The notes beneath the pieces are model-generated. The model ran no database searches, had not been told where the DNA came from, and saw only the letters and a program-made list of their open reading frames with translations. Positions 31,539 through 53,152 of a stretch of 53,446 bases of DNA are shown here, piece after piece. Numbering within the stretch: position 1 is the first letter of the stretch; the number at the start of each line of letters is the position of its first letter. Origin of the DNA: Promethearchaeota archaeon Loki_b32 (lineage in GTDB: Archaea; Asgardarchaeota; Lokiarchaeia; Sigyniarchaeales; SOKP01); the NCBI GenBank assembly GCA_005223125.1, contig NJBH01000027.1, positions 1 to 53,446 of the forward strand, read 5' to 3'. The position numbers and the translations under genes were made by a program.

Positions 31539-32792
31539 TCATTCTTGATTAAAATAATCAGATTCAAGATTAGGATAAATTTTCTTTTTTCTTCCATCTT
31601 TTTTAAATCTTATAAGTCCTAAATCAATTAATTTATTTAAGTGGTATTGAATTGTTTTATGATCTACCTTAAATTCTTTAGTGATTAAGTTATTCCACAT
31701 CCCCGGTTTTTTCTCAATCATTTGTAAAATCTCTAAAGTTAATTTACTCTTTTGTAACTTTAAATCTACATTAGAGATAGGATTTTTCTGATAATATGGG
31801 AAATATGCTATAAAATATCCTATACGTTTTTTTCCAATAACCTTATAAGTAAGTAACATATCAAGATGCCAAACCAAGTTCCCTGCAGCTAACCCTGTTC
31901 TGCGTAGTAATTCATTAAAATGAATTCCGGGTTCATTTAAGATTAAATCTATTATTTTGTTCCGATTTTGATTCTCTAAAACCTCATCTAAAGATAATCG
32001 GTGGGCTCCTTTCTCAATTGGAATTGTTCTTGTTCTTAAGTATTGGAAATAATCTTTTTTTGAGATTAAAACTACTAAAGCAACAATTCCAATCCCTATT
32101 ACGGAAATTGTTACTATTAGCCAAGTCCAATCCTTTTGGATCACCTCTACTTCAAATAGTGTAATGTAATAATCAGTATCTTGTTGAAGAGATGTAATAG
32201 AACCTTCTATATATTTTTCAGAGGTAGTTTCATTGGCATTCTCTATAGTATCAACTAATTCCCATGATTCTTTGTTAGTTTCAAATATAGCCAATGAATA
32301 TGTAGAATCAGGATTAATGCCATATAATTGAACCTTTCTGTATCTAATGGTTATGTTATCTATTGATGTATTCGATCTTATCCTAAAGATACAATTATAG
32401 CCAAATCGAAATCTTGAATTGCTTCTTTGTGGCTGTTGTGGCGATTGCATTATACCAAAACTCTGTAATTCCGATTTAATTGAGATATTTAGTGAAATTG
32501 GAATACTGTTATTTATTATAAAATAGGTTTGGCGAAACATAATATTGTTTTCGTACTCAATATAAAGATCAATATAAGTATCTGTTGAGATTTCGAATGT
32601 GTTATTATTCATGAAATCATACAAAACTCTTTCTTTTGGTTTAATAGAGTCTTGAGTAGAAAAACCATTAATTTTTTCTTTTCTTGCACTGGCATTAGCA
32701 ATTAATAAATTAGATTCAAGGAAAAATATAAATAGAAATAGTATAACGACATACAAGTACTTTTTCCTTTTTCCTAACTCAAATATCGCCAA
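31539..32792 (-). CDS. Membrane-anchored transcriptional regulator: signal/TM, beta-rich ectodomain, TM, two wHTH domains
   Basis: Two hydrophobic segments; VLEN.NR..I...I...PGIHFNEL..WHL and KPG.....I......TIQYHL.KL...GLI. Confidence 0.85.
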   Translation of the reverse strand: MAIFELGKRKKYLYVVILFLFIFFLESNLLIANASARKEKINGFSTQDSIKPKERVLYDFMNNNTFEISTDTYIDLYIEYENNIMFRQTYFIINNSIPISLNISIKSELQSFGIMQSPQQPQRSNSRFRFGYNCIFRIRSNTSIDNITIRYRKVQLYGINPDSTYSLAIFETNKESWELVDTIENANETTSEKYIEGSITSLQQDTDYYITLFEVEVIQKDWTWLIVTISVIGIGIVALVVLISKKDYFQYLRTRTIPIEKGAHRLSLDEVLENQNRNKIIDLILNEPGIHFNELLRRTGLAAGNLVWHLDMLLTYKVIGKKRIGYFIAYFPYYQKNPISNVDLKLQKSKLTLEILQMIEKKPGMWNNLITKEFKVDHKTIQYHLNKLIDLGLIRFKKDGRKKKIYPNLESDYFNQE

Positions 32793-32859
32793 TTAATTTC
32801 CTTCAATTATATTTAATTAATATATAAAATCTTAAAAAAAAAAATATTTTTGAATATAT

Positions 32860-33537
32860 TTACTTTCGTTTTTTTAGATATATTACTAAAACCACAGCAA
32901 TAACTGCTACTCCAATAACCGCAGCTCCAACACTGATATAAATCCAAAGAGTATTATCCGCTTCAGGTATGAGTATTGTCCAATAAGAGAAGTGGTCAGT
33001 TTCAGCAACTAAATTTCCATCTTCAATGGTAGTTGGAACTGTAACCCATTCTCCTTCATAGTAGTATGCCCATTCTCCATTTCGATTTTCATTGGTTGCC
33101 TTTATTTTAAGCTTAGCATCACAAGTACCATTACATTGTATTTGAAGACAGAATCCTTCTTCATACCGATAACGGTGTCGCTCTTTTATCCTAAAAGTAG
33201 AACCTTTTTGTAAACCAAGTTGAATTTGTTCTTCTCTGCAAGTCATGGTCATTTCTAAGTCTCCATCTGCATCTATTTCAATTTCAAAATCTTTTTCTCC
33301 AATCCTAAAGGAGTCACAATCAAGGTTTAAATCAATATTAACGTTTGAGGTAAAGTTCAATCTAGTTTGGTACTCAAATTGGAACATTGTTCTATTGTTT
33401 GCCTGTACTTGGCTTGTAATCGTATTACCAACAACTGGAATTGAAGCATCCGCGCCTAAAACTGTAGTAACGTTGAATAATGAAATTAAAATTGCGAAAG
33501 TAAAAATTCCGATAAGTATTTTATTAAATTTTTTCAT
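32860..33537 (-). CDS. Secreted single-pass membrane protein with juxtamembrane HFS motif
   Basis: Signal peptide, beta-rich domain ending AETDHFSYWTIL, C-terminal TM + KKRK. Confidence 0.8.
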   Translation of the reverse strand: MKKFNKILIGIFTFAILISLFNVTTVLGADASIPVVGNTITSQVQANNRTMFQFEYQTRLNFTSNVNIDLNLDCDSFRIGEKDFEIEIDADGDLEMTMTCREEQIQLGLQKGSTFRIKERHRYRYEEGFCLQIQCNGTCDAKLKIKATNENRNGEWAYYYEGEWVTVPTTIEDGNLVAETDHFSYWTILIPEADNTLWIYISVGAAVIGVAVIAVVLVIYLKKRK

Positions 33538-33861: not shown

Positions 33862-36117
33862 ATGTCGTTAAAGGATTTCACTAAAGAAGTCTTTACTCGT
33901 TATGGCTTTACCGAAGATCATATTAATATCTATCTTGTGTTTTTAAGGGTTCCCAGAGCAACCACATCTGAAGTATACATGACTCTAACTGAGAAACATG
34001 AAGATTTGACTTATGAAACTGTATTAGAAATTACTAATTGGCTAGTTGAGAAAGGATTTCTTAAAAGAATTGAAGGAATTATTGAGAGATATATTCCTCT
34101 TCAGCCATTTTTTGAACTATTCACCAATGAATCAGAGAATTTTAGAAATGAAATTGCGAAGATTAAAGATACGATTTTATCTGATCAATCAGATCGTTTT
34201 GAAAAACTCGAAGCGATTCAAGATAAAAGTATTGGTGAAGTAGAAAATGCTGTTGATAAACAAGTCACCGCATTTTTTGAAGATTCTGATTCAAAAAATA
34301 ACACTAAAAAAAATCGCATTGACAGTGCTACTAATCGGTTTACTGAAACTTCCAAAACATTAGAAAGTAATATCCATGGGATAATGGACACATTAAATTC
34401 GAATTTAAAAAATATTTCAGAAACAAATGTTAGTAAAAATGAAGCGGAAGTTACTAAAACAAAAGACGATCTTACATCATTGATTTCGAAATTATTACTT
34501 GATTTTTCAACTAGAGTTGAGACCCTAGAAAAAGAATTGAAGATGGAGCTGGATGAACACGTTGAGAGACATAAAAATACAGCAAATCAACTTAAACCTA
34601 AAATGGAACAAATTTTAGAGAAATATTTAGAACGTATGGATAAAGTTATCGCGGATTTAAAAGTAAAAATCTCGAATTTATTAAAAGAACACTCGAATCA
34701 TGTAAAAAATACTACAGATACTTTACAAACAAACTTAAAAGCGACCGTTGATGAAAGACATAGAATATTAACAGACCAGACTAATGATTTTAAAAGTATG
34801 ACTTTGACCTTAATCGATAATTTACTTGAACATGCAAATAGATTTTCTGATTTTACTGAAGATATAGGAAAAAAAGGATTTTTATGGATGGGTAAAAAGA
34901 AAAAATATAAAGCTAGACATAAAACAACTATTGAAAATATATTGACTTACACTGAACCAATGAAACCAGATTTTATTAAATCATGCGATGATTATATAGC
35001 AGATACACGAGGAACCACCGATCAAATTAAAACTGATACAACAGATATTATGGCAAAAGAAAATGAAGGGCTAGCTGCAGAAACTAATGACCTTGACTAT
35101 AGGGCTCAAGAAACTGTTGATGCACAATTGGAGACCCTAGCTACTGATCTAGTAGGAGAAGTTGATGATACTTTACAAAGTGGTGTAAAAGATTGTTCTG
35201 ATACTAATTTAAAACTTAAAGATTCCTTAGAAAATTCATTGAAAACACATCATAGACAATATGATGATGCAATAAACAATCATAAGGAAAATTCATTAAA
35301 AAATTATACCGATTTTGACATTGAAATTAAGAGAATAAGTGCGGATTGGACCAGAGATATAGATATGAATTTTGCTGATGGTAAAAGAGATTGCTCCGAA
35401 AAAATTGATGGTGAAATTAGATTATGGGATGCTGAAGCTAAAGGTATGAACACTAACTTAAGTGATATGCTTGTGGATCACAAATCCAAATATGAACAAA
35501 ACGCAAAAACACTTCAAAATAGTTTGTCAAATACCACAAGAGATACTATTCAAAATGTTAAGGACGCAATCGCAGATTTCACTCTACAATTCATGAATTC
35601 TATTGATGATTCCACTGAATTAGGCGAAAATAATGAGAGTAAATTAACTGATATTCATAATGCTTCTAGTTCGATTCCAGAAATTGCTAAAGTAACAACT
35701 TGGCCTGTAATCGGAAAAGATGCTATGGTTTCTGCGATAAAAGATGCAATTTATCGTGTAAAATCTTCAATTATTATTGTTACTCCATATGTCGTCCCTG
35801 AAATACTACAAGTCGTCTCTGAATACGCTTTCCAGAAAAAGGCAGTGCGATTCATGCTGACAAGCAGGTGGGAAATGGATAGATATTCAGGAATTATAAC
35901 AAAGATGAAGCAACTTGGAAACATACAGTTCCGCCAATTACAGACAGCCGGCGAGTTCTTCGCAGTTACCCGAGATGCTGAGGAAGTAATTCTTGCTCCT
36001 GCCACAAAAAAAGAAACTGAAATGATCGCGATCGTCTCAAACCAAGAGGGATATGCTAAACTTTATTCTCAATTCATCGGGCCAATTTTTCAAGCAAATA
36101 GCCGGCCGATAAAGTAA
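33862..36117 (+). CDS. TrmB-like protein (N-terminal wHTH, C-terminal effector/PLD-like fold) with ~520-aa helical insert
   Basis: YGFTE..IY..L...AT.SEV..WLVEKGF..Y.PL.P; W.VIGK.A....I...I.R.KSSI.IVTP..RD.EEV.LA; no HKD motif. Confidence 0.72.
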   Translation: MSLKDFTKEVFTRYGFTEDHINIYLVFLRVPRATTSEVYMTLTEKHEDLTYETVLEITNWLVEKGFLKRIEGIIERYIPLQPFFELFTNESENFRNEIAKIKDTILSDQSDRFEKLEAIQDKSIGEVENAVDKQVTAFFEDSDSKNNTKKNRIDSATNRFTETSKTLESNIHGIMDTLNSNLKNISETNVSKNEAEVTKTKDDLTSLISKLLLDFSTRVETLEKELKMELDEHVERHKNTANQLKPKMEQILEKYLERMDKVIADLKVKISNLLKEHSNHVKNTTDTLQTNLKATVDERHRILTDQTNDFKSMTLTLIDNLLEHANRFSDFTEDIGKKGFLWMGKKKKYKARHKTTIENILTYTEPMKPDFIKSCDDYIADTRGTTDQIKTDTTDIMAKENEGLAAETNDLDYRAQETVDAQLETLATDLVGEVDDTLQSGVKDCSDTNLKLKDSLENSLKTHHRQYDDAINNHKENSLKNYTDFDIEIKRISADWTRDIDMNFADGKRDCSEKIDGEIRLWDAEAKGMNTNLSDMLVDHKSKYEQNAKTLQNSLSNTTRDTIQNVKDAIADFTLQFMNSIDDSTELGENNESKLTDIHNASSSIPEIAKVTTWPVIGKDAMVSAIKDAIYRVKSSIIIVTPYVVPEILQVVSEYAFQKKAVRFMLTSRWEMDRYSGIITKMKQLGNIQFRQLQTAGEFFAVTRDAEEVILAPATKKETEMIAIVSNQEGYAKLYSQFIGPIFQANSRPIK

Positions 36118-37418: not shown

Positions 37419-38195
37419 ATGTTAAGTAGATCAAGAAAAATAACTTTAGGAACCAAAGAATGGGCAGATAGTAATGTTAATTGCTATTTCGGATGCTCCA
37501 ATAATTGTCGTTATTGTTATGCTAAGAAGATGGCTATCCGATTTAAAAGAAAAACAGAAAAAACATGGAAGATTATGGAACCTAATCTTAAAGCAATTAA
37601 AAAAGGATACTTAAAGCGAAAAGGAAGAATAATGTTTCCGACATCTCATGATATAACAATGGAAAGCCTAAGCAGTTGTCTTATAGTTTTAAAGAAAATC
37701 ATCGATGCTGGAAATGAGATTTTAATTACTACTAAACCTAGATTGAGTTGTATCAAATTAATATGCAATGATTTTTATAAAAAAAAGAATTCAATTCAAT
37801 TTCGGTTTACTATTACTTCGAAAAATAATGAATTATTAAAATTTTGGGAACCGTATGCGCCATTATTTAAAGAAAGAATCGAAGCATTGAAATTTGCATA
37901 TCATAAAGGTTATAAAACAAGTGTTTCAATTGAACCATTTCTAGATGAAGACCCCTATACTTTAGTTGATATATTATATCCTTATATAACTGAATCCATA
38001 TGGATTGGAAAAATGAATTATGTTTTCTCCAAAAATAAAACGCCAAAATTAATCAATTTTTATAATTACATAGATAAAATTAACTCTAAAGAAAATTTGT
38101 TAAGAATCTTTGATATGGCTAAAAATTATGATAATTCTATTGTTAGAATCAAAGATAGTATTTACAATTTTTTAAATAAAGTTAATTTAAAATAA
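37419..38195 (+). CDS. Radical SAM protein of the gp37/gp68 (DUF5131)/spore-photoproduct-lyase-like group
   Basis: KEWADSNVN, GCSNNCRYCYA, TSHD, ITTKP, FTITS, WEP.AP...ER, SIEP, WIGKMN. Confidence 0.8.
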   Translation: MLSRSRKITLGTKEWADSNVNCYFGCSNNCRYCYAKKMAIRFKRKTEKTWKIMEPNLKAIKKGYLKRKGRIMFPTSHDITMESLSSCLIVLKKIIDAGNEILITTKPRLSCIKLICNDFYKKKNSIQFRFTITSKNNELLKFWEPYAPLFKERIEALKFAYHKGYKTSVSIEPFLDEDPYTLVDILYPYITESIWIGKMNYVFSKNKTPKLINFYNYIDKINSKENLLRIFDMAKNYDNSIVRIKDSIYNFLNKVNLK

Positions 38196-38305
38196 TTAAA
38201 TTTAAATTTAAAATTCTGTATCAAAAATCATTAAACTTATACTCATTTGAAAAATATAATAGTTATTTTGATCGTAATTTTTAGATAAAACGAATCAGTA
38301 ATTTG

Positions 38306-38324
38306 TGTCGGTTTTTGTCGGTTT
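38306..38324. repeat. TGTCGGTTT x2 direct repeat, 10-bp period, upstream of tcmP-like gene
   Basis: Copies at 38306-38314 and 38316-38324 in an otherwise very AT-rich spacer. Confidence 0.55.
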
Positions 38325-38393
38325 GAATAAAGAACAACTAATAATTACCAAATAATTTAATTTATAAAGGCGTTCCTTATTATTATTAATGAA

Positions 38394-39398
38394 ATGGCTA
38401 ATACTAAGAAGATAACCAATTTTGAATTTCATCTACAAAATATAAAGAAGTTAGATGATGAATGGAGATTTTTAAAAAAAATTCCAACGTTTCCTTTTGG
38501 AGATCCTAGATATTATTACTCGAGAGATGACAACAGTGGATGGTGGATGGCAATCAAACAAACTGCATTCAGAGGATATATTAGTGCATACCTCTCAATT
38601 TTAGGAAAAGAAAAAGATCGGAAGCTCTATTTTATTGATCCATTAAGTAGTTATGGTATGGTAAGGGTTACGAAAAATTATGGGAAAGATAAGTTTACAT
38701 TCCCAGGTACTTCAATTAATGCAGCATTAATATCCAATCAGAAAAAAAAGGGATTTGATGGCTTCTATATTAATGATTTAGACCTATTTACAAGAAATAT
38801 ATTAAGCGAGAGAATATTATCTATTAAAACTCATTATAACAATAAGGCTGAAATTAATATTGACATAAGTAACAATAAGATTGATTCTAATAACTGGCTT
38901 ATTAATATTATGAGATGTATTAACGAAGAAAATAGTTTCTATCATTGTTTAATTATTATTGATAACCAAGCTATGAATATATATTATGATACTATTCAAA
39001 AAATTAGAGAAATCAGTGAATATTGTGATGTTATCATTACTTTCCAAGATGCTAATATTGCTCGTGCAATACCATCAGGATCACCAAAAATTGAAAGGTT
39101 TTTTGGATGTGAAATTCCACCTAACACTAAAAATCTCAGAAATGTGTTGTGTGACAAATATTGTGACCAATTAAGTAAAGTTAATTTGCCTAAAATTGAA
39201 AGAATGAAAGTCGCATCTGAAACGGGATATTTTTATACTTTACTTTTTTGCTGTCGACAGAAAGCAAGTGGGGAATGGTTTAAAATAATTAGGTATTACA
39301 ATGATGAGAGATTTAAGAACTTCACAGATAGAGAGCAAAAACGAATGTGGGATATTAGGAAAGGCAAGCAGCTAAGTCTTACTCATGATTGGAATTAA
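38394..39398 (+). CDS. Three-Cys-motif partner protein (TcmP)-like methyltransferase-fold protein
   Basis: W...K......YI.AY..IL, LYFIDP.S.YG, GTS..A, DSN, IID, YTLLF; adjacent to DUF5131-like radical SAM. Confidence 0.72.
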   Translation: MANTKKITNFEFHLQNIKKLDDEWRFLKKIPTFPFGDPRYYYSRDDNSGWWMAIKQTAFRGYISAYLSILGKEKDRKLYFIDPLSSYGMVRVTKNYGKDKFTFPGTSINAALISNQKKKGFDGFYINDLDLFTRNILSERILSIKTHYNNKAEINIDISNNKIDSNNWLINIMRCINEENSFYHCLIIIDNQAMNIYYDTIQKIREISEYCDVIITFQDANIARAIPSGSPKIERFFGCEIPPNTKNLRNVLCDKYCDQLSKVNLPKIERMKVASETGYFYTLLFCCRQKASGEWFKIIRYYNDERFKNFTDREQKRMWDIRKGKQLSLTHDWN

Positions 39399-39521
39399 AC
39401 TTTAATACCATTTCTTCTTATTATTTCTTTTTTACTAAGCCATAAGATTTTTTGGCAATGTCATTTGAATATCTTTTTTAAAGCCTTAAGATTAATTTAA
39501 AAATCCAATTTGAAGTAATAC

Positions 39522-39785
39522 TTATGTATAAGCATTCCAAGTATCAACAGCTTTAAAATATTTAGAAGCAAGATCTCTTGAACCAATATATTGAACCCAT
39601 TTTATGAAAGCCTCATCTTTCGATCCAATATTAGGAATATAAGCATCATATGTTATTTCAATAAATTTATCTATATTTGTTTTAAACTTATCGAAGTTTG
39701 GGATAATTTGAGGCTTTGATATTTTTATGAATATATGGTAAATTTCCATATATTCTTTTTCGGTAAATTCTACTTTTTTCTTCAT
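39522..39785 (-). CDS. Hypothetical protein
   Basis: 87-aa ORF, ATG with purine-rich leader, downstream of the Cys-repeat gene. Confidence 0.55.
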   Translation of the reverse strand: MKKKVEFTEKEYMEIYHIFIKISKPQIIPNFDKFKTNIDKFIEITYDAYIPNIGSKDEAFIKWVQYIGSRDLASKYFKAVDTWNAYT

Positions 39786-39829
39786 GTCTTTTCTTCCCTA
39801 AATTGTATCCTCAAGATACTATGTTAAAA

Positions 39830-40540
39830 TTATATAAGAAAATCTTTAAGATCCTTGCTTATGTCTGCCTTTATTTCTTTTTCAAGCTTCTCTGATGCAT
39901 ATTCTGCTTTATAGAAAACAGGACAATCAAATCCAAAAAGTTTACAAGTAAACTCATTATATACATTTCTCTTTTTAGAAACTAAACTGATCACACCATA
40001 AGGGCAATATTTAAGAAGTATACAAGGTTTTTCAAATTCTGGTCTAAAATATTTCTTTAAATGTTTAAATCTGATTCGTTTTGCTTCATTTCTTAATTCT
40101 TCATTAAATTTTGGTCTATTTAATGATTTTTCTATAACTTTTTCAGAAATATAAAAAACAGGACAGTCATGACCAAAAACTTGGCAGGTATATCTCGATA
40201 TCTCTCTGCGGATTCTAAAAGCTTCAACAAGCCCACCATAAGGGCACCACTTAAGTATATAACAAGGTTTTTCTGCGTTCTCATCAACCATGATACTCTC
40301 ATTGAACCATCTTTTAGGATCAGTGGTTTCCTGTATATCATTATAGCATTCTTCGCAAAACCATCCCTCATATTGAGCAATATAGACCATATTTTTCATA
40401 GTATCATCCCCCTTACACCTACAACATAAAATTGAGTGATGAAATGCGGTTAAAAGTTCGTTATATTCTCTATTTAGTTGCCCTCTCCTTTTCTCATCCA
40501 ACTTAGTATACTCATTGATAAGTCGGTTTTTCCAAGCCAA
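39830..40540 (-). CDS. Cys-rich protein: zinc finger plus two KPC..LK.CPYG...C..FG.DCPVFY repeats
   Basis: CCRC...WFCEEC; two ~45-aa four-Cys repeats visible in the translation. Confidence 0.8.
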   Translation of the reverse strand: MAWKNRLINEYTKLDEKRRGQLNREYNELLTAFHHSILCCRCKGDDTMKNMVYIAQYEGWFCEECYNDIQETTDPKRWFNESIMVDENAEKPCYILKWCPYGGLVEAFRIRREISRYTCQVFGHDCPVFYISEKVIEKSLNRPKFNEELRNEAKRIRFKHLKKYFRPEFEKPCILLKYCPYGVISLVSKKRNVYNEFTCKLFGFDCPVFYKAEYASEKLEKEIKADISKDLKDFLI

Positions 40541-42080: not shown

Positions 42081-42449
42081 ATGAAGAAAAATACAATGAT
42101 GGATACTTCTAAAAAAAGAGTTGAATTAATGGCTCCGCTGAAAAACTATAAATCCCTAAACGCTGTGTTAGGTAAAGCTGATGCTGTGTATTTTGGTGTT
42201 GAATCGTTTAACATGCGAATGTATAGTGACAATTTTAAACTAGAAGAACTAAATGATATTGTAAAAATTTGCCATAATCATAATATTAACGCTTACCTAA
42301 CAACAAATGTAGTAATTTATGAAAATGAATTTTCTCTTTTAGATCAAATATTAGATAAAGCAGTAGAGGCCGAAATTGATGCTGTAATCATTCATGACAT
42401 TGGTGCTATTCAATTAGCAAAGGAAAAAGGATTACATTTCCATATTTCT
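42081..42449 (+). CDS. U32 peptidase-family protein, truncated at the chimeric junction
   Basis: ELMAP, ADAVYFG, FNMR, YLTTN, DAVI.HD.G, HIS; the expected HISTQ motif and remainder are missing. Confidence 0.85.
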
Positions 42450-42461
42450 GACCTCAATTAA
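42442..42461. other. Junction between archaeal (Asgard-like) and Acinetobacter-like DNA
   Basis: U32 gene breaks mid-motif; gene content switches to Gammaproteobacterial; GC visibly higher to the right. Confidence 0.88.
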
Positions 42462-42581
42462 CTGCAAAGGTTTTTAATGGACCGTTTTAAAACAGATTTG
42501 ATTTCATCCCCAATAACTTCAAGTGATAACTAACAAAGAATAAAAACCTTTGATGGTTTGTTATCTTGTTAAGAGAAAGCT

Positions 42582-42610
42582 ATCTTTGCCTCGAACATGC
42601 AATATGTCAA
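42582..42610 (-). promoter_or_regulatory. Putative sigma70 promoter for the gene normally downstream of pilQ (aroK)
   Basis: Minus-strand TTGACA-N17-AAAGAT; pilQ-aroK order is well known in Gammaproteobacteria. Confidence 0.4.
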
Positions 42611-42648
42611 ATCAGAGGTTGAGTTCATTTGCAATTATTGAAAATATA

Positions 42649-44826
42649 TTAATGATTTCTTGTCAAAGTGTCATTAACAATTCTCGGTGTCACAAAAATT
42701 AGCAGTTCACGCTTATTATCCGTTTTAAGATCACGACGGAATAATCGACCAATGTAAGGAATATCGCCTAAGAAAGGTACTTTTGTTTGAGAGCTAATAT
42801 TTTCCTGCTCAAAAATCCCACCTAAAACAACGGTTTCGCCATTATCCACTAATACATTGGTATCAATAGAGTTTTTGCTAATCGTTAATTGACCAGTAGG
42901 TGTTGGCGTACTAGGTGCATCCTTAGTGATATTCAACTTCATCATTACTTTACCATCAGGTGTAATGCTAGGAGTTACATCCAAACTTAAGGTTGCGTCA
43001 ATAAATTCAGTTTTAGGAACTGCATTTGCTCCGCCGCCAGACGAAGAGGTATATGGGATTTTTGTACCTGACTCAATTTTTGCCGCTTGTTTATCAGCAG
43101 TCATCACTTTCGGTGTAGAAATTACCTCACCATAACCATCAGCCTGTACTGCTGAAAGCTCTAAATCCAACATAAAGTCAGATAAACTGATTAGACCAAA
43201 GGCAATTCTACTGGCACCTGGTGTAACAGCCCCCAAATCAACATTCAGATTATCTGGCCGTTCAATTTCATACGTCCAACCACCAGTATCTGAATTCTTT
43301 GTTGGTTCTCGCAAATTCCATAAAGTTGTATCACTACCACCAACCAATAAATCATTATTACTCGTAATGCCTTGTGATAAAATACCCCACTTCACACCCA
43401 TCTCTTTTGTGAAATCGGTACTTGCTCGTACAATGCGCGCTTCAATCATCACTTGCTTAACCGAAACATCCAGTAAATCAATCATTTTACGTATTTTATC
43501 AATATTAACTGCCGTATCATTGACAATTAAAGTATTCGTTCGTGTATCAGCTACAACACTCCCCCTTGAACTCAACAAACTTTCTAAAGCAAGAGAATCA
43601 GAATTCGCTGTACGATTTGCAACAGCGCCCTTCCCATCTCTTGAGTCTTCTATTAACTTTAAAATATCTGCAGCTTTTGCATAACTTAATTTAATATATT
43701 CAGACTGAATAGGCGCTAATTTAATGCTTTGAGCAATCGCTTTCGCCTCATCTTCCTCAGATTTAATCAACTCAGGAATAGGCGCAATCCAAATCACATT
43801 ACCATTGCGACGCTTATCTAAATTTTTAGTTTTCAGTACAATATCTAGCGCCTGATCCCATGGAACATCCTTTAAACGCAAAGTAATGTTTCCTTGCACC
43901 GTATCCGCAGCAACCATATTGATTCCAGTAAAGTCTGCCAACAGCTGTAATACTCGACGGACCTCAATATCTTGGAAGTCCAAAGAAATTTTATTACCCG
44001 TATAGGTCTGAGCTTTGGCTTTTTGCGGTGTGTTATCTTGAGGGCGCTTAAGACTAATCGTCAGCTTATTTTCTGCTTGATATGCCATATACTCATAGCT
44101 ACCTGCAGACTGGATATTAATAATTCCATTACCTTTATCATTATATGCGTCAATACTGGCAACTGGTGTCGCAAAATCATTGGTATTTAAGCGGCGCGCT
44201 AAATGAGTCGGGATTTTACTTCCCATTGTCCGAACAACGATCTTACTTCCTTGTTGTTGAACATCAACTGGCGTATTACTTCCCAGCAGATCAATAACAA
44301 CTAAACCTTCACCATCTTTACCACGCTGAAAACCAATATTTGATACACCTTGCTGTACCTGATTCACTGAAGATTTCATTACAGCACTAGTCTGAGGTTG
44401 TACAGAATTAATTTTCAGTACAAAAGTATTACCTTCAACACGAGTCGTAAATGCACCAGCATCTTTTAGATTTACAATTACACGAGAACGCTGATCATCA
44501 GAAGCTACATCAATCGAATTTGCTTCATTCGTAGACACTGGAATAGACGTTCTTTTCAATGTTTGTTGAGCTTTATCGAAATCTAGAATTAATCGACCTG
44601 GCTGCTCAAGTTGATATGCTTGTGGCTGAGGTGGTAAACCATTAAACATGATTCGAATCTCAGTACCTTGCTCAGCCAAACTCATCGGTACAATGTTCGT
44701 CATCGCTACCTGAGCTGAAGCAGCCTGCATTACCGCTATAGTAATAGCAGCCATAGAAAATTGTCGGAATGCACGATTCATGGTCTTCGCTTCCCCAAAT
44801 AAAGAATCTTTAAACTGTTTTTTCAT
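42649..44826 (-). CDS. pilQ: Type IV pilus secretin PilQ (ComQ)
   Basis: AMIN-like domains, ISLDFQDI, VPWDQALD, QVMIEARIV, KVPFLGDIP, ELLIFVTPRI. Confidence 0.97.
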   Translation of the reverse strand: MKKQFKDSLFGEAKTMNRAFRQFSMAAITIAVMQAASAQVAMTNIVPMSLAEQGTEIRIMFNGLPPQPQAYQLEQPGRLILDFDKAQQTLKRTSIPVSTNEANSIDVASDDQRSRVIVNLKDAGAFTTRVEGNTFVLKINSVQPQTSAVMKSSVNQVQQGVSNIGFQRGKDGEGLVVIDLLGSNTPVDVQQQGSKIVVRTMGSKIPTHLARRLNTNDFATPVASIDAYNDKGNGIINIQSAGSYEYMAYQAENKLTISLKRPQDNTPQKAKAQTYTGNKISLDFQDIEVRRVLQLLADFTGINMVAADTVQGNITLRLKDVPWDQALDIVLKTKNLDKRRNGNVIWIAPIPELIKSEEDEAKAIAQSIKLAPIQSEYIKLSYAKAADILKLIEDSRDGKGAVANRTANSDSLALESLLSSRGSVVADTRTNTLIVNDTAVNIDKIRKMIDLLDVSVKQVMIEARIVRASTDFTKEMGVKWGILSQGITSNNDLLVGGSDTTLWNLREPTKNSDTGGWTYEIERPDNLNVDLGAVTPGASRIAFGLISLSDFMLDLELSAVQADGYGEVISTPKVMTADKQAAKIESGTKIPYTSSSGGGANAVPKTEFIDATLSLDVTPSITPDGKVMMKLNITKDAPSTPTPTGQLTISKNSIDTNVLVDNGETVVLGGIFEQENISSQTKVPFLGDIPYIGRLFRRDLKTDNKRELLIFVTPRIVNDTLTRNH

Positions 44827-44842
44827 TTTTATTCCCTTAATC

Positions 44843-45370
44843 TTACGGTGCTAGCCCAATTAAAACGAGAGTTCTAGGTCTTTCAACATACCCTTCTCGC
44901 CCATCAGGTACAATTTCCACCAAATCAATCTGTGTCGGGCTGATTTTAACAATTCGTCCTTGATTTACACCCAAGTAACTTCCAACTTGCACACGCTCTA
45001 CCTGCCCATCTGGTGTTTGAATCAAAGCAATCGTCTCATTACTTTTCCCACGCATACTACCTTTCATATTCAGAGACTCTAGTGCATAGCTCTCTAAAGG
45101 TTGTGGTTGACGATTAAAGTTTGGATAAACACGTTTACCCGCCATGATTCTTAATTCCGCAGCCAAAGAACTTGGCATAAATGGACTTTTTAATTGGTGT
45201 GCTGAATAATTAAATAAAGGTACTGGTGTAAAAATAGGTGCTGGTTCAATCGGTAGTGGAGCTTCATTACGAATAGCAGCCATCTGTTGATTTACAGCGT
45301 CAATACGAGAATCACAACCAGACAAACCAAGCAGCGATAATACGCCGAGTAATAATGTTGTTTTATTCAT
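44843..45370 (-). CDS. pilP: Type IV pilus lipoprotein PilP
   Basis: Lipobox LSGC, SPF, PLESY.LE.L, G.YLG.N.G.I. Confidence 0.95.
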   Translation of the reverse strand: MNKTTLLLGVLSLLGLSGCDSRIDAVNQQMAAIRNEAPLPIEPAPIFTPVPLFNYSAHQLKSPFMPSSLAAELRIMAGKRVYPNFNRQPQPLESYALESLNMKGSMRGKSNETIALIQTPDGQVERVQVGSYLGVNQGRIVKISPTQIDLVEIVPDGREGYVERPRTLVLIGLAP

Positions 45371-45372
45371 TA

Positions 45373-46107
45373 TTACTTCCCTCCTTGAGCATTAGCAGCT
45401 GGTTGAGTTGCTGGAGAAACCGTGTCCGTACCAGCTTGATCATCTGCCCCAATATAACGATATGTTTTTGCTTTAACTGAGTAATTAATCACAGGAATAT
45501 CTGATTTCTTTTGTGTATCAGGTTTAGCTTCTACAACAAAATCATGTAGCGTTACGATTCGAGGTAACGCAGCAATCCCCGTAACGAACGCGCCAAATGC
45601 ATGATAATCACCCGTTGCCTCAATGCTTATTGGTTGCTCAATAAAGAATTCTTGCTTAACTTCACTCTCTAAACGGATATTTTTAAATTTCAGACCAGAA
45701 TTCACGCCTGTTAAGTTAATATCTTCAACCAAACTTGGAATTTCTGTTTCTTTTGGAAGCTGTTCAAGCTGTTGATTAAAATTCGCTTCCATTTCTTGTA
45801 ATTGTGCTTGGTATTGCTGCAAGTTTCTTAACTTCGAGTCCTTCTCTCTAAACTCGTTTAATAAGCTTTGCTCTTTAGCTTGCGCATTTGCAATCGATTC
45901 AAGCTGAGATTTAATGACGACGAAATAACCAAGCGCCACCACCGCCAAGAAAACAAAAATCCAGCATGTAATTTTAACTGACAGAGGCCAACTGCCGTAG
46001 TTGTTCATATCCAACGTGTTAAATTGTTGGAAGAACTGCTCTACTGTCATTTTCTTTTTCTTGACTACAACATCTTGATTGAGGTCATTTAGTTCTTCTT
46101 GACTCAT
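45373..46107 (-). CDS. pilO: Type IV pilus assembly protein PilO
   Basis: GSWP, QLP.ETEIP.L, FFIEQPI, GDYH.FG.F, LPRIVTL, AKTYRY. Confidence 0.95.
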   Translation of the reverse strand: MSQEELNDLNQDVVVKKKKMTVEQFFQQFNTLDMNNYGSWPLSVKITCWIFVFLAVVALGYFVVIKSQLESIANAQAKEQSLLNEFREKDSKLRNLQQYQAQLQEMEANFNQQLEQLPKETEIPSLVEDINLTGVNSGLKFKNIRLESEVKQEFFIEQPISIEATGDYHAFGAFVTGIAALPRIVTLHDFVVEAKPDTQKKSDIPVINYSVKAKTYRYIGADDQAGTDTVSPATQPAANAQGGK

Positions 46108-46748
46108 TGTGCACCTCCAGCCGTTGCAGAAGCAGCTGTTTCCGCTGATGGGTCAACTTCAGTCACCGCCCCAATCTCCCCTAAATCAACTGTTACAACA
46201 AAGCTTCCATAGTTTTCCTCGACTCGAGGAACTAAAGAACTAGCAGCTTTATCTTTTTTCTCTTCGGCCGCTAAGAACGAATTCATAAATGCATTTCGAT
46301 ACCAAGGGGATGCTTCCAAATTACGCAGCAATTCAGCAACTGTATTTGGACTTTCCGCTTTTCCTTCAATCGTGAATTTATCACCCGTTCTTGTGAACTT
46401 GGTTAAATACATCGTAGGTGGCGTAACCCGAACCAGTTCATCTACCAATCGCACAGTTACAGGACGCTGACCTTGCAATCCTTGAATCAGCTTCATACGT
46501 TCAATAATTGCATTACGTCGTTCTTGCAAACCTTCTAATGATTTTAACTGAGTATCTAGATTTTGATTGGTACTTACAATTAATTGATTCGCTTGCTCTT
46601 GATCATCCAGTTTTTGATCAAAGTAAACCCAACCTGAAAATATTGATGCCACACCTAAAGCAGCAACACCAACACACAAAGCGACAAACTGTTTCTTTCT
46701 TTGTTCTCTTAGCTCATCACGCCAAGGGAGTAAGTTAATCTTTGCCAT
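46104..46748 (-). CDS. pilN: Type IV pilus assembly protein PilN
   Basis: N-terminal INLLPWR motif, TM, coiled coil. Confidence 0.95.
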   Translation of the reverse strand: MAKINLLPWRDELREQRKKQFVALCVGVAALGVASIFSGWVYFDQKLDDQEQANQLIVSTNQNLDTQLKSLEGLQERRNAIIERMKLIQGLQGQRPVTVRLVDELVRVTPPTMYLTKFTRTGDKFTIEGKAESPNTVAELLRNLEASPWYRNAFMNSFLAAEEKKDKAASSLVPRVEENYGSFVVTVDLGEIGAVTEVDPSAETAASATAGGAQ

Positions 46749-47806
46749 TAATCAAAACTCCTCAATGCTAGACCACATGCCACCATCAAAGAGGAAGCAT
46801 CATTTTCTATTTTTTTAATGTCAATTTGGGGAGAAAAGCCCATTTGTAGGAATGGGTTAGCAATCGTAACGCGATAACCTAGTTTTTGTTGCAATAGCTT
46901 CGCTAAGCCAGGAATATTGGCATTACCGCCAGCCAATAAAATATGATCAATTTCATTAAATTGCGATGATGAGAAGAAAAATTGCAGTGAGCGTGCAGCT
47001 TGCTGCACAACCGCATCAAGGAAAGGTTCCAAAACTTCAGTGTCATAATCATCTGGGAGCGATCTTTCTTTTTTTGCCCGACCTGCTTCTTCAAATGATA
47101 AACCGTAGCGGTTTTGCACATCTTGGGTAAGCTGGCGACCACCAAATACTTGCTCACGCGTATAAATGATTTTACCTTTTTGCATCACAGATAAAGTTGT
47201 CATGGTATGACCAATATCTAGAATGCCGACAGTATTCGCGCCCATTGGAAGCGTATCAGAAAACACACTAAAAGCTCGTTCCATTGCATAACTTTCAACT
47301 TCAGCAATTTTTGCTGTTAAGTTCGCAAGTTCAAGAACTTCGACACGCGTGTCAACATTTTCTGTTCGGGTAGCAACTAATAGGACGTTAACGCGATTGG
47401 GATTTGGCAATTTATCAGGCAGAACCTCAAAATCAAGGCTCACCTCATCTAATGGAAACGGAATGTACTGTTCAGCATCCATACGAATTTGCACTTCACG
47501 CTCTTCATCTGACATATCAGCATCCATCTCAATGATCTTATTAATCACCATTGATGTTGGAACTGCGATTGCCACATTGGTAGTGTGAGGGTTCGCTAAA
47601 TTGACAACACGCTCAAGGGCATCACCAACTGCTTCAGGATTAAGAATGCTTTTTTCGACGACACTGTTTTCTGGCAGCGGCATCAACGCATAACTTTCAA
47701 CCCAATATCTACCGTTCTTTACAGAGAGCTCCAATAACTTAACAGTTGTCGAACTAATATCGACCCCTACTAACCCCTTATTTGGTTTACGATATAACCT
47801 GAGCAC
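46748..47806 (-). CDS. pilM: Type IV pilus assembly protein PilM
   Basis: GVDISS, QYIPFPLDEV, LDIG, LAGG, ANPF, ACGLALR. Confidence 0.96.
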   Translation of the reverse strand: MLRLYRKPNKGLVGVDISSTTVKLLELSVKNGRYWVESYALMPLPENSVVEKSILNPEAVGDALERVVNLANPHTTNVAIAVPTSMVINKIIEMDADMSDEEREVQIRMDAEQYIPFPLDEVSLDFEVLPDKLPNPNRVNVLLVATRTENVDTRVEVLELANLTAKIAEVESYAMERAFSVFSDTLPMGANTVGILDIGHTMTTLSVMQKGKIIYTREQVFGGRQLTQDVQNRYGLSFEEAGRAKKERSLPDDYDTEVLEPFLDAVVQQAARSLQFFFSSSQFNEIDHILLAGGNANIPGLAKLLQQKLGYRVTIANPFLQMGFSPQIDIKKIENDASSLMVACGLALRSFD

Positions 47807-47968
47807 AGTACTTTCCTATTTATTTTTTTATCCCCAAAAATACAACATACTAATTTGTTTTGGTCTTTAATTTATACGGATACAATAACTCATCTAACAA
47901 TCCGCATGTCTAAAGGATATACTGACCACAATTAGTTTGCCATTCGCTCTTATTAAAACTTACTTATT

Positions 47969-50557
47969 ATGAAAAAGCTATCCAGTTCTGGCATTGTTCG
48001 CCCATTTTTTTTGATGCTTATTATTATCTTAGTCTCACTTCCAATGGGATTTTATGGCATGTATCTCTATCTTGCACCATCTTTGCCAGATATGAGTTCT
48101 CTAAAAAAAGCGCCATTACTAAAACCATTGCAAGTCTATACAGCTGATAATAAGTTAATCGCGGAATATGGTGGCAAACTATCAATACCAGTAAAGTATG
48201 AGCAAATTCCCCCAACATTTATCCATGCATTTCTAGCAGCGGAAGACTCTTCCTTTTTTGAGCATAATGGCATTAGCTTCAAAGGTCTTGGTCGCGCAGT
48301 CACTGAATCAATTACTGGATCCGATGTCCAAACTGGTGGCTCAACGATCACCATGCAAGTTGCGAAGAACTATTATTTAAGCCCAGACCGTACATTAAGA
48401 CGCAAACTAACAGAGGTTTTCCTTGCACGAAAAATTGAACAAAACCTAACAAAACAAGAAATTCTAACAGCTTATGTCAATAAAATTTTCTTAGGAAAAA
48501 ATGCTTACGGTATCGCAGCAGCAGCTCGAATCTACTACAACAAAAATATAAATGAACTAACAACAGCACAAATGGCAATGATCGCTGGATTGCCTAAAGC
48601 ACCATCAAAGTATAATCCTGTTGTAAATCCTGAACGAGCACTTGAACGTCGTAATTGGATTTTAGGTCGTATGTTGCAGCTTGGTTATATTAATCAAACC
48701 CAATATCAAAAAGCAGTTGCTGAACCAATTAGTTTAAACATGGTGGATCGTTCAGTCAGTAACGTATTTCCCTATGTAGGTGAAATGGTTCGTGCTGAGC
48801 TTGTTGAACATTTTGGCGCTCAAGCAATCGACTCTGGCTATAAGGTTTATACTACGATTGATAGCAAACGTCAGCGCTATGCAGAACAATCAATTCAAGA
48901 TGGCCTTGAAGCTTATGATCGTCGTCATGGCTGGCGTGGTCCTGAAGCTCATGATAAACCACTTAATCAGTTCATGGCATATGCCAACACCTACCCCGCA
49001 CAAGTTGTAAAAGTAAAGAGCAACTCTTTTGATGCTTTGATGCAAGATGGTTCAACAGTCACCGTGAATTGGTCAGGCATGTCATGGGTGCGTCCTTATC
49101 GTAATGCCAATAGCGTTGGCGGCGCTCCATCCAATGCTTCTCAAATTGTTAAGGTTAAAGATATTATTCGCTTACGACCAAATGAAGATAAAACCGTTTG
49201 GTCTTTAGTTCAAGTTCCAAAAGTCCAAGGACAATTGATTGCATTAAATCCAAATGATGGTTCAATTGAAGCAATCGTAGGTGGATATAATTTCTATCAA
49301 ACAAAATTTAATCGTGCTTTACAAGGCTGGAGACAGCCTGGTTCAACCATTAAACCATTTGTCTATGCATTAGCATTAGAGCGCGGCATGACACCATTTA
49401 GCATGGTGAATGACAGTCCCATTACGATTGGCAAATGGTCTCCTCGAAACTCTGATGGTCGCTATCTCGGTATGATTCCGCTACGTCGTGCATTGTATTT
49501 ATCTCGAAATACAGTCTCTGTGCGCTTATTACAGAATGTAGGAATCGAAAGAGCTCGCCAATTATTTATGGATTTTGGCTTACAGGATGATCAAATTCCA
49601 CGCAACTACACGATTGCGCTCGGCACACCTCAAGTTCTTCCAGTGCAAATGGCAACAGGTTATGCAACCTTTGCAAATGGCGGTTATCGTATTCAGCCTC
49701 ATTTCATCAAAAGAATTGAGGACAATAATGGCAATATCATTTATGAAGCTAAGCCTGAATATGCATGTATTCCATGCATCAGCGACTCAAATGCTTATAA
49801 CCAAGCACAAGACACCAACCAAGATGATGAAACACAAGAGATCACCAATGAAAGCTTAGAGAACGCTCTAGCATCATCAGAAACTCAAGCGACAGATGCA
49901 AATCCTGATCGATTACTCAAGACCAATAGCAATTACAAACAAGCTCAACGAATTTTAAAATCCAGTTCAGCTTATGATATGGCAAATATCCTACATGACG
50001 TAATTCAGCGTGGTACAGGTCGTGCTGCACTCAAAATTGGACGAGATGACTTAGGTGGTAAAACAGGAACAACCAATGATGCGAAAGATGCTTGGTTCGC
50101 AGGCTTTAATGGCAAGCTCGTCGCGATTGCTTGGGTTGGATTTGATCAACCTCGCACATTAGGTCGTCGTGAATATGGTGGTGTTGCTGCACTACCTATT
50201 TGGTCGAACTTTATGGCGAAGTCACTTGCAGGCACACCGTCTACATGGGTTCGTTTTGATAAAGATGCAAGTGCACCAATCTCTCGTGATGAACTACAAG
50301 TTCAACAAAGCGAAGATCAAAAAGTTTATCGTGCATCTCCACCATTAGCGCGTCCTCTCTATCGCCCAGCACCAGTTGTTCCAACACGTTCAATAGATAA
50401 CGATTTCTCAGACTTACCTGGCACAGCACCTTCAGCTGATGAACAAATTATTGTTCCCTCAAAAAAACAACCACCTGCTTTAGGTACGGAGACTCAAAGT
50501 CCGTCACCGAAGAAAGAAAGAGATAATATAGAAAACCTCATTAACCAAATCCAATAA
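47969..50557 (+). CDS. ponA: Penicillin-binding protein 1A
   Basis: AAED..F..H.G, GGSTITMQ, RK..E; transpeptidase STIK, SRN, KTGT; divergent from pilM. Confidence 0.96.
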   Translation: MKKLSSSGIVRPFFLMLIIILVSLPMGFYGMYLYLAPSLPDMSSLKKAPLLKPLQVYTADNKLIAEYGGKLSIPVKYEQIPPTFIHAFLAAEDSSFFEHNGISFKGLGRAVTESITGSDVQTGGSTITMQVAKNYYLSPDRTLRRKLTEVFLARKIEQNLTKQEILTAYVNKIFLGKNAYGIAAAARIYYNKNINELTTAQMAMIAGLPKAPSKYNPVVNPERALERRNWILGRMLQLGYINQTQYQKAVAEPISLNMVDRSVSNVFPYVGEMVRAELVEHFGAQAIDSGYKVYTTIDSKRQRYAEQSIQDGLEAYDRRHGWRGPEAHDKPLNQFMAYANTYPAQVVKVKSNSFDALMQDGSTVTVNWSGMSWVRPYRNANSVGGAPSNASQIVKVKDIIRLRPNEDKTVWSLVQVPKVQGQLIALNPNDGSIEAIVGGYNFYQTKFNRALQGWRQPGSTIKPFVYALALERGMTPFSMVNDSPITIGKWSPRNSDGRYLGMIPLRRALYLSRNTVSVRLLQNVGIERARQLFMDFGLQDDQIPRNYTIALGTPQVLPVQMATGYATFANGGYRIQPHFIKRIEDNNGNIIYEAKPEYACIPCISDSNAYNQAQDTNQDDETQEITNESLENALASSETQATDANPDRLLKTNSNYKQAQRILKSSSAYDMANILHDVIQRGTGRAALKIGRDDLGGKTGTTNDAKDAWFAGFNGKLVAIAWVGFDQPRTLGRREYGGVAALPIWSNFMAKSLAGTPSTWVRFDKDASAPISRDELQVQQSEDQKVYRASPPLARPLYRPAPVVPTRSIDNDFSDLPGTAPSADEQIIVPSKKQPPALGTETQSPSPKKERDNIENLINQIQ

Positions 50558-50560
50558 GCT

Positions 50561-50588
50561 AAAAAGCCATCAAATTGATGGCTTTTTT
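50561..50588. terminator. Bidirectional intrinsic terminator
   Basis: AAAAAGCCATCAA...TTGATGGCTTTTTT hairpin between convergent genes. Confidence 0.85.
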
Positions 50589-51388
50589 CTTTTTTGAAAT
50601 AAATAAATCTGAAAAGCGGCACTTACCGTGAATACTGGATTCTGCTCTAACAACATCCGTCGTTCGGGATTGGCTTTATAAGCATAAGGCGTCATTGCGA
50701 TTAAGTTCTTTAAGGCCATTTGATCCAAACTTAACGGCGCTTCAATCACTTGCTCTTGTATCAACTCAAACTCAGCTTCAAGTTGCTCAACAAACTTATG
50801 AGGCTCATGTAAATTTACCTGTTCAAATAAAGCAGCTCTTAAATCATATAAATGCTTAGGTGCAGGCGTTACAACAATTAAATGTCCGCCATGATTTAAA
50901 ACTCGAGCAATTTCTGCTTGAGGAATTGGACTAAATAAACTCGTACAAACATCAACACAATGATTTTGAACGGGCAATGTTGCACCTGTTCCAACAATCC
51001 ATGTTACTTTGGAATTTAGTTTTGCTGCACGTTGTACCGCTGTTTTAGCAATATCAACACCAATACAATCGTTAGCAACCGTTTGCATCGCATCGGTATA
51101 ATAACCCTCACCACAGCCAATATCTAAAATTGCTTTTGGTTTAAGCAGCTGAAGTATCTCAACAACCGCTTGCTGTAATGGCTGGTAATAACCTGCTTGT
51201 AAAAATTCACGGCGTGCTAATACAGATTCAGCAGTATCACCCGGTGTCTTACTATGTTTGTGTTGAACCACATGAAGATTTACATAACCTTGTTTGGCCA
51301 CATCATAGCTATGTCCTTGTTCACATCGCCATTTATTCTCCGCCAAATTCAACGATTGGCGACAAACAGGACACATCAACAAACTCAT
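50570..51388 (-). CDS. rlmA: RlmA-like 23S rRNA m1G methyltransferase
   Basis: CPVC...C...H zinc finger, GYVNL, ARR.FL, LDIGCGEGYY, MTPY. Confidence 0.85.
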   Translation of the reverse strand: MSLLMCPVCRQSLNLAENKWRCEQGHSYDVAKQGYVNLHVVQHKHSKTPGDTAESVLARREFLQAGYYQPLQQAVVEILQLLKPKAILDIGCGEGYYTDAMQTVANDCIGVDIAKTAVQRAAKLNSKVTWIVGTGATLPVQNHCVDVCTSLFSPIPQAEIARVLNHGGHLIVVTPAPKHLYDLRAALFEQVNLHEPHKFVEQLEAEFELIQEQVIEAPLSLDQMALKNLIAMTPYAYKANPERRMLLEQNPVFTVSAAFQIYLFQKRKKPSI

Positions 51389-51405
51389 CTATTTTCTCCA
51401 AACAT

Positions 51406-51430
51406 AAAAAAAAGCTGGTCATCACCAGCT
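51406..51430 (-). terminator. Intrinsic terminator after mraY
   Basis: AGCTGGT-catc-ACCAGCT stem followed by a T-run on the minus strand. Confidence 0.75.
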
Positions 51431-51448
51431 CTTTTCTCGAATCTTGGC

Positions 51449-52567
51449 TTAACGTAATTTTAACGTCATCAACCCTAACACAACGAGGAAAATGGTAATA
51501 ATCCAAAAGCGGATTACGACTTGTGTTTCTTTCCAACCTTGCTTTTCATAATGATGATGTAATGGCGCCATTAAGAATACACGTTTATTTCGCATACGTA
51601 ATGAACCGATTTGCAAGAATACAGAAACAGCCTCCATGACAAATACACCGCCCATAATTGCAAAGACAATTTCTTGACGAACCATCACCGCAATCGTACC
51701 AAGCATCGCGCCAAGCGCTAAAGCTCCGACATCACCCATAAAGACTTGGGCAGGATGCGCATTGTACCAAAGGAAAGCAAGACCCGCTCCGATCATTGCA
51801 GAGCAAATCACTACGAGCTCAGAGGTATATTTAACGTATGGAATATGCAAATAATTCGCAAAACGAATGTCACCAGATAAATAAGCAAAAACGCCCAAGC
51901 CTGCTGCAACCATAACGATTGGCATAATCGCCAAACCATCTAGACCATCCGTCAAGTTAACCGCATTTGATGCACCATTAATCACAAGATAAGTGAAAAC
52001 AATAAATGCTAAACCCAGCGGCACAACAGATAGAGGAATCGACAAATTCTTAAAGAAAGGAATCAGCAAATCCAGCATATTCGCTGTATGTACGGCACTA
52101 TCCTGCTGTTTCGCAATCACATATAAGGCAATACCCGCTCCCAGAGATGCCACCGAAGTCCAAAAAAACTTCTTACGTGCGGGCAAGCCGGCATTATCTT
52201 TATAACGAACTTTAATCCAGTCATCGGCCCAGCCTACCGCACCAAACACCACCATCACACCAAGTACGATCCAGACATATGGATTGGATAAATCAGCCCA
52301 TAATAGCGTGCTGATCCCGATAGAGAGCAAAATGAGAATCCCGCCCATCGTTGGGGTGCCCATTTTTTTGGCATGGTTTTCTGGCGCAAAAGAGCTCACA
52401 GCCTGACCATATTTTAATGCCTGTAATTTACGAATCATGACTGGACCTAAAACTAGTCCGATCGTCAGAGCAGTCAGCAAGCTCAACAAAGAGCGCAACG
52501 TTAAATAACGAACAACCTGAAACGAACTGTTATAGTCCGCCAATTGCTCAAATAACCATAACAACAT
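51449..52567 (-). CDS. mraY: Phospho-N-acetylmuramoyl-pentapeptide transferase
   Basis: [37 protein letters not shown]. Confidence 0.97.
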
Positions 52568-53071: not shown

Positions 53072-53152
53072 ATATACCGGAATGACTCCGATAACCTTTC
53101 TGCGTTTGATTTCCTGCCAGAAACTCATGGGATTTTCTGGTTTTTCAGGCAT
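53056..53152 (-). CDS. N-terminus of an unrelated bacterial membrane protein (FWQE.KRRKV family) from a third genome
   Basis: MPEKPENPMSFWQEIKRRKVIGVIPVYAAAAF resembles the F..ELKRR.V..V...Y N-terminus of TolB-like/TPR membrane proteins; not MurF-like. Confidence 0.6.

Follow-up and report, generated by a model that had tools for sequence, protein, structure and literature searches.

A TrmB-derived Asgard archaeal protein predicted to carry a long antiparallel hendecad rod between the two halves of its head

Introduction

Chemoreceptors occur in length classes made by symmetric insertions and deletions, and TrmBL2, a chromatin protein of the Thermococcales, tetramerizes through its PLD-fold domain. 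TrmBL2 forms stiff nucleoprotein filaments (PMC11840125) and, like the protein family described here, is without the sugar-binding second subdomain of the regulator TrmB (PMC4158304). In TrmB itself, the pairing helix is antiparallel between subunits and domain-swapped (PMC4158304).

How does a much longer Asgard relative compare with these proteins? We analyzed a window of 53,446 nucleotides, positions 1-53,446 of contig NJBH01000027.1 from Promethearchaeota archaeon Loki_b32 (assembly GCA_005223125.1), which encodes a protein of 751 aa. This protein seems to be a structural spacer of an undescribed kind and not a gene regulator. Our literature search found no paper describing the rod family, and an ESCRT survey makes no mention of TrmB. 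The features discussed below are as follows.

33862-36117 (+): whole gene, 751 aa; two TrmB-derived head halves with a hendecad antiparallel rod between them
33886-34107 (+): TrmB/TrmBL2-type winged helix domain, aa 9-82 (Pfam, family profile, AF2)
34009-34047 (+): recognition helix, aa 50-62, net charge -2, without R-x-Y-D (comparison with TrmB and TrmBL2)
34108-34866 (+): arm 1, aa 83-335, 23 nearly in-phase hendecads, ~38 nm, with conserved Pro246 (periodicity, AF2)
34342-34392 (+): arm-1 length-change site, aa ~161-177 (orthologue indels)
34867-34911 (+): basic/aromatic central break, aa 336-350, predicted hairpin tip and candidate membrane-docking patch (sequence, AF2, orthologues)
34912-35667 (+): arm 2, aa 351-602, hendecad helix predicted to lie antiparallel to arm 1, i+j ~680-686 (AF2, covariation, two-copy model)
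35362-35424 (+): arm-2 length-change site, aa ~501-521, mirroring the arm-1 site (orthologue indels)
35506-35616 (+): head-proximal neck, aa 549-585, with the highest conservation among the segments measured (identity 0.92)
35695-36114 (+): PLD-fold domain, aa 612-751, like TrmB effector subdomain 1 and TrmBL2 (model, Foldseek, Pfam in members)

Results

The open reading frame is intact, with an ATG start and no internal stops, and its close homologues in the Promethearchaeota (Lokiarchaeia; 72-93% identity) are nearly all exactly 751 aa long and go by the database names 'hypothetical' or 'TrmB regulator'. The AF2 monomer (mean pLDDT 72, pTM 0.35) lays out a winged helix, a helix at 82-335, a loop at 336-345, a second helix at 346-602, and an alpha/beta domain. 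An initial annotation, made from the sequence alone, had described a helical insert of ~520 residues between TrmB-like ends, with arms of up to ~38 nm each and a break at the center. The two modeled helices bear out the insert, their lengths (254 and 257 aa) support the arm dimension, and the break (aa 336-350) spans the midpoint of aa 83-611, residue 347. A PDB sequence search with all 751 aa gave no useful match; matches to NCBIfam ZorA and to Pfam Exonuc_VII_L, Baculo_PEP_C, and Apolipoprotein were compositional, far under cut-off, and set aside.

Terminal domains

Are the two ends those of a TrmB regulator? PF01978 (TrmB) scores 22.4 bits on aa 13-82 of the 751-aa protein alone, under its 25.6 cut-off, and is matched by 32 of 39 family members; the N-terminal family profile has TrmBL2 (1.7e-13) and TrmB (1e-10) as its top PDB relatives, so the TrmB-like N-terminus first proposed is upheld. 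In the recognition helix, the positions of R-x-Y-D, a motif that the ordinary 226-aa TrmB of the Loki_b32 genome retains, read T-x-L-E. Across the 39 members, the Tyr is kept in one, the Arg in two, and the Asp in one, and no conserved substitute was found at these positions, where residues are variable and often acidic. The helix is neutral or acidic in 36/39 (mean charge -1.1). Because the recognition helix has lost this motif, DNA binding by the head appears doubtful. Conservation of the R-Y motif in the wing leaves room for a weak DNA contact, and the winged helix is retained in every long member examined.

At the other end, the model of aa 612-748 superposes on the TrmB effector domain (2f5t) with Z 16.8 and rmsd 2.1 over 128 residues, in agreement with the effector-like C-terminus (~aa 612-751) of the initial annotation. 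The aligned part of TrmB comprises residues 110-239 only, and the 751-aa protein stops after it. The top Foldseek matches are TrmBL2, followed by the PLD superfamily, and PF11495 is matched by 13 of 37 members and gives no Pfam match for the 751-aa protein itself. Since the C-terminal profile by itself finds TrmBL2 at no better than E 0.14, the assignment rests on structure together with Pfam. The second effector subdomain of TrmB, which carries the sugar-binding G320/E326, is absent from the 751-aa protein, and a role as a sugar sensor is therefore unlikely. D705 and E708 are invariant. At the HKD positions (HxKxxxxD), the Asp is the invariant D705, the Lys position is aromatic in 32/37 members and never Lys, and no His occurs at the positions preceding it in the 37 members compared; lacking this catalytic motif, the domain is ruled out as an active PLD enzyme or nuclease.

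Rod

What arrangement do the two arms adopt? Hydrophobic residues recur with a period of 3.66 in arm 1 and 3.68 in arm 2—the 11/3 of a hendecad, not a heptad—with a broad hydrophobic face, and the rod is net acidic. The 203 orthologues make up 11 length classes with equal gains in both arms (r = 0.999): arm 1 is longer by 0, 11, 40, 44, 51, 62, 73, 84, 95, 106, or 150 residues, arm 2 by the same amount, and departures from equality amount to a tip variant of 0, +1, or +4. The arm symmetry that the initial annotation had proposed checking in Asgard orthologues is thus borne out, and most of the steps equal 11n or 11n+7. A quick tree of the head-proximal columns requires ~19 parsimony changes of class (minimum possible, 10), which points to a repeated history of arm-length matching rather than one event.

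The sites of these length changes are mirror images about the tip (sums 663-686, excluding one poorly aligned subgroup): the arm-2 site is observed near aa 510, whereas parallel pairing would predict it near aa 430. In covariation, the 12 strongest antidiagonals lie without exception at i+j = 675-689 (z up to 6.9; best parallel diagonal, 2.5). This signal was carried by the full-covariance test, which used a wider sequence set and shares one alignment with the structure models; charge-only covariation was weak in the 125 closest Lokiarchaeia sequences. Parallel pairing is excluded by the mirror-image indel sites and the covariation on antidiagonals, and the arms, as judged from these sequence comparisons, pair antiparallel in a fixed register.

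Structure prediction gave a hairpin monomer, whose AF2 rod aligns with the chemoreceptor structure 2ch7 over 308/309 residues (Z 11.9, rmsd 10.9); spurious bends in long and hendecad coils are a known fault of AlphaFold (PMC11676326). Two copies of aa 200-485 were modeled as a four-helix bundle with a score of 0.43 (best control, 0.00), barely above the 0.42 mark reached by 20/30 solved pairs and 1/23 single chains, and the result may echo solved chemoreceptor bundles. Contact agreement between runs was at least 87% and pLDDT at least 66; arm 1 meets arm 1' and arm 2 meets arm 2' in register, and arm 1 meets arm 2' at sums 682/686. An atlas search with the rod alone returned no usable match. 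Symmetric indels, covariation, and monomer and two-copy models all favor the antiparallel pairing of equal arms, ~255 aa each, that had been suggested at the outset, and we are highly confident of an antiparallel four-helix rod.

Central break

The break at aa 336-350 reads GKKGFLWMGKKKKYK. The tip carries a net charge of +7, whereas comparable stretches along the remainder of the rod average -1.1 and peak at +4, and its identity among 129 close homologues is 0.89, compared with 0.70-0.86 for arm segments. The insert also contains P246, P366, and P369, which AF2 leaves within helices. Three versions of the tip exist in Lokiarchaeia—GFFWMGKKKKY-like, GLFFTKGKKRKY-like, and RGSAWKALFLG-like—and in each of the 203 orthologues the tip is basic (charge of +2 or higher) and contains two or more aromatics; their hydrophobic moments are modest (0.25-0.40). 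Of the conserved FLWM tip first proposed, the basic/aromatic character therefore stands within Lokiarchaeia, while FLWM itself is one version among three. Beyond this group, members of ~750 aa in Jordarchaeales, Gerdarchaeota, and others are likewise interrupted at the midpoint by a short basic or hydrophobic segment, Pro-rich linkers occur in some longer family members, and many other Asgard clades, such as those with Thor- and Odin-type members, are without a basic/aromatic tip. W-x-G occurs only in tip type 0 (140/203 orthologues); kinship with WXG100 was rejected, the hairpin being 520 aa as against ~100 aa, with no Pfam match and W-x-G confined to one tip type.

Does the chain turn back here? 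In the clade of the 751-aa protein, the center combines a phase jump, Gly residues, and length variants of 0/+1/+4, as in a free loop. Because of these features, a fold-back at aa 336-350 is favored, and we consider it probable for this clade.

Distribution and gene neighborhood

How widespread is the family? All named relatives are Asgard or Asgard-like MAGs. Among 121 Asgard genomes with a completeness of 90% or more, a C-terminal profile matched 119, and each of the 21 families sampled was represented. The profile derives from family proteins, and the count is one of domain matches, weak ones included, rather than of confirmed rods. The best matches lie in ORFs of ~450-1900 aa, often in several copies per genome, and a single-sequence search for the domain found it in 216/301 genomes. 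In Loki_b32 the 751-aa gene is the sole close copy. Three further long-insert paralogues (G000:C50:40320-42503, C36:185409-187421, and C19:15269-17200; 727, 670, and 643 aa) have a winged helix, a helical insert of 255-300 aa, a PLD-fold domain, a Pro-rich linker, and a common C-terminal helical domain ending W-K/R; all are without R-x-Y-D, and the C50 paralogue has an additional N-terminal Cys/His domain. Elsewhere in this genome, the product of G000:C21:207572-208519 (315 aa) joins a coiled coil to the same PLD-fold domain and has no winged helix, and directly upstream of the C19 paralogue lies a 375-aa gene (G000:C19:17210-18337) with, by eye, a longin-like N-terminus and no Pfam match. A 1162-aa member with a Pro-rich center (L093; G023:C1:2105000-2121000) adjoins a small-GTPase-like gene, with a second one nearby.

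Two orthologues come from cultured models: QEE17539.1 of P. syntrophicum (963 aa, +106/+106) and NEF87_001274 of L. ossiferum (1050 aa, +150/+150), whose predicted arms differ by 44 residues (~6.5 nm). The former is very probably DSAG12_03376, as inferred from accession offsets: QEE17319 is DSAG12_03152, which places QEE17539 at tag ~03372 plus the RNA genes in between. In NR it is named 'TrmB family transcriptional regulator', and beyond 2.3 Mb of the chromosome no other TrmB match exceeds the cut-off. In the P. syntrophicum proteome, DSAG12_03376 ranks tenth by identification score with an NSAF of 0.15, compared with 0.24-0.84 for central enzymes (PMC11284389). Given the DSAG12_03376 match, the orthologue is very probably made; its abundance is moderate rather than extreme, because the identification score favors long proteins. 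NEF87_001274 has no entry in the portions of the published supplements that were searched, and a published table of summed 'TrmBL' abundance was set aside, as it does not name the members.

We found no operon or gene neighborhood conserved across classes, and a promoter scan revealed nothing beyond chance. Upstream of the rod gene, a divergent pair (31539-33537, minus strand) belongs to a cluster present in 62/74 close loci. One product has 225 aa and hydrophobic stretches at its N- and C-termini; the other, of 417 aa, combines a related extracellular-like domain with a transmembrane helix and a double winged helix (PF24266). The cluster may be a one-component membrane sensor. In L088, L090, and L138 (Promethearchaeum, Harpocratesius group), the orthologue is divergent from an IF-2-like gene. 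Downstream in the window, a low-GC island (37419-40540) with a radical-SAM/DUF5131-like gene, a 334-aa gene without a Pfam match, and a Cys-rich repeat protein looks mobile or defense-related. From ~42460 to 53446, the GC content rises from ~29% to ~40% and bacterial type IV pilus genes appear (PilQ secretin at 42649-44826, PilP, and PilO), which we take to be Acinetobacter-like; the archaeal U32 peptidase ORF at 42081-42461 is truncated to 126 aa, compared with 419 aa in relatives. The contig is probably chimeric, with a junction near 42460.

Discussion

What might such a rod do? We propose that a TrmBL2-like chromatin protein gave rise to a structural spacer, docked on the membrane and controlled in length—a mechanism that, taken whole, we hold tentatively. 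On the comparative data, arms 1 and 2 pair antiparallel in fixed register. In the models, each chain folds back at aa 336-350, and two chains make up a straight four-helix hendecad rod that would measure ~38 nm here and as much as 60 nm in other Lokiarchaeia; one end bears a two-fold TrmBL2-like head and the other both tips. These tips, Lys-rich and aromatic, would dock on anionic lipid of the inner membrane face, as their chemistry suggests; such a Lys-rich tip could instead bind nucleic acid or protein. The head, with its degenerate recognition helix and dead PLD fold, would mainly bind other heads or a partner protein and not an operator, and the rod would fix the distance between this partner and the membrane or link into a sub-membrane scaffold.

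Might the partner be DNA? The initial annotation had raised a DNA-membrane tether, which in its present form would use the same rod to keep chromatin 38-60 nm from the membrane through a head that binds DNA non-specifically, like TrmBL2. Consistent with this, the closest solved relative of both ends is that filament-forming chromatin protein, the winged helix is retained, with a conserved wing motif, in the long members examined, and the basic/aromatic center is present in Lokiarchaeia. The DNA end of such a tether is doubtful: the recognition helix, neutral or acidic in nearly all members, has lost the residues with which TrmB reads DNA and has gained no conserved substitute, and the tip itself is absent from several clades. 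We regard the tether as rather unlikely.

A second alternative concerns the path of the chain. Instead of folding back, two parallel dimers could pair antiparallel into an extended bipolar tetramer with a head at each end of a ~77-nm rod (~128 nm in Thorarchaeia) and the basic/aromatic segment as a mid-rod bulge, which would cross-link two partners or polymerize head to head. The same indel symmetry, covariation, and four-helix contacts are predicted, and the domain-swapped pairing helix of TrmB provides a precedent. Thorarchaeia-type inserts (752-866 aa), Odin-type inserts (799 aa), and several others run in a single unbroken 11/3 phase across a midpoint without Pro or conserved Gly; length changes in these members fall at the center (-22, -29, -114), and AF2 places a turn there only at pLDDT 41-47. 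Thor charge covariation peaks at sums 858, 862, and 865 around a center of 865, with 0/100 shuffles as high, in a small sample of 10 sequences and a window chosen post hoc. An extended tetramer explains the same contacts because these relatives pair antiparallel about a turn-less center, and at least some family members may be extended and two-headed. Of the hairpin in the initial annotation, the antiparallel arms consequently hold and the fold-back is not proven by them, given that a domain-swapped tetramer yields identical contacts. Against the tetramer in the 751-aa protein stand the loop-like center of its clade, the hairpin of the AF2 monomer, and the bundle contacts of the two-copy model; for this protein we consider it unlikely.

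The long-range sensor-regulator also envisaged at the outset would pass a signal from the tip or the PLD-fold domain along the bundle and so switch operator binding. The bundle is chemoreceptor-like and the gene is divergent from the membrane-anchored winged-helix cluster in most close loci; that synteny, however, is not seen outside the close family, the protein has neither the sugar-binding subdomain, the recognition motif, nor an MCP signaling domain, and the proteome rank of the probable P. syntrophicum orthologue is high for a specific regulator, all of which makes this role improbable. Finally, lipid-coating 11-mer helices of the apolipoprotein/perilipin kind, lying on membranes with no bundle, are very unlikely: the 11/3 periodicity and the weak PF01442 matches invite the comparison, but those matches (24.7 bits against a 90-bit cut-off for Apolipoprotein A1/A4/E) arise because the 11-residue repeat has a broad hydrophobic face, the rod is acidic, and arm-length matching with inter-arm covariation demands a protein-protein register.

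More speculatively, and with considerable doubt, we suggest a near-universal, ancestral Asgard class of length-controlled four-helix hendecad struts, 40-230 nm long and evolved from a chromatin regulator. Some lineages would have them as hairpins with membrane tips, others as extended rods with two heads, and a scaffold assembled through the heads would space chromatin or other machinery from the membrane. The Asgard head domain has so far been labeled only 'hypothetical' or 'TrmB regulator' and usually occurs in long ORFs. The 44-residue arm difference between the two cultured models is a measurable cryo-ET signature, which makes the spacer idea directly testable. The family also clearly exemplifies the growth of a short dimerization helix, taken from a regulator, into a length-matched rod.

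How, then, does the protein compare with known systems? With TrmBL2 (5bpd, 5box, 5bpi, 5bqt) it shares a winged helix, a pairing helix, and one PLD-fold domain without HKD or sugar-binding subdomain (Z ~15); TrmBL2 has a mere pairing helix where this protein has a 520-aa two-armed hendecad rod with a basic/aromatic center, and keeps the R-x-Y-D that the 751-aa family has lost. The two terminal folds are likewise those of TrmB of Pyrococcus/Thermococcus (3qph, 2f5t; PF01978 and PF11495), but the 751-aa protein is without the sugar-binding G320/E326 part and without Y50/D51 (PMC4158304), and in place of the short pairing helix that links the domains of TrmB and TrmBL2 is a 520-aa linker of two ~255-aa helices. 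It thus descends from TrmBL2/TrmB and fails three defining features of those regulators. Long continuous 11/3 coils, poorly detected by heptad predictors, are shared with hendecad fiber families such as MACH (Martinez-Goikoetxea and Lupas 2023), as far as the account in PMC11676326, which cites that work, describes them. Of the two likenesses drawn by the initial annotation, SMC/Rad50 fits less well: there too the head halves are split by a long antiparallel coil, but the 751-aa protein has no ATPase halves, hinge, zinc hook, or central Cys pair, and its predicted four-helix hendecad bundle differs from two-stranded heptad arms; with a winged helix and a PLD fold as termini, an SMC reading is ruled out. 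The cytoplasmic domain of chemoreceptors (T. maritima, 2ch7) fits the architecture better, being a dimer of long antiparallel hairpins in a four-helix bundle, an arrangement to which the sequence comparisons and the models point here, whether the chains are hairpins or swapped. No sequence homology to it and no MCP domain (PF00015, E up to 0.1) was detected in the protein, which has an 11-residue instead of a heptad repeat, no transmembrane or HAMP part, and a head of TrmB origin. Architecturally, it works like a chemoreceptor rod without being one.
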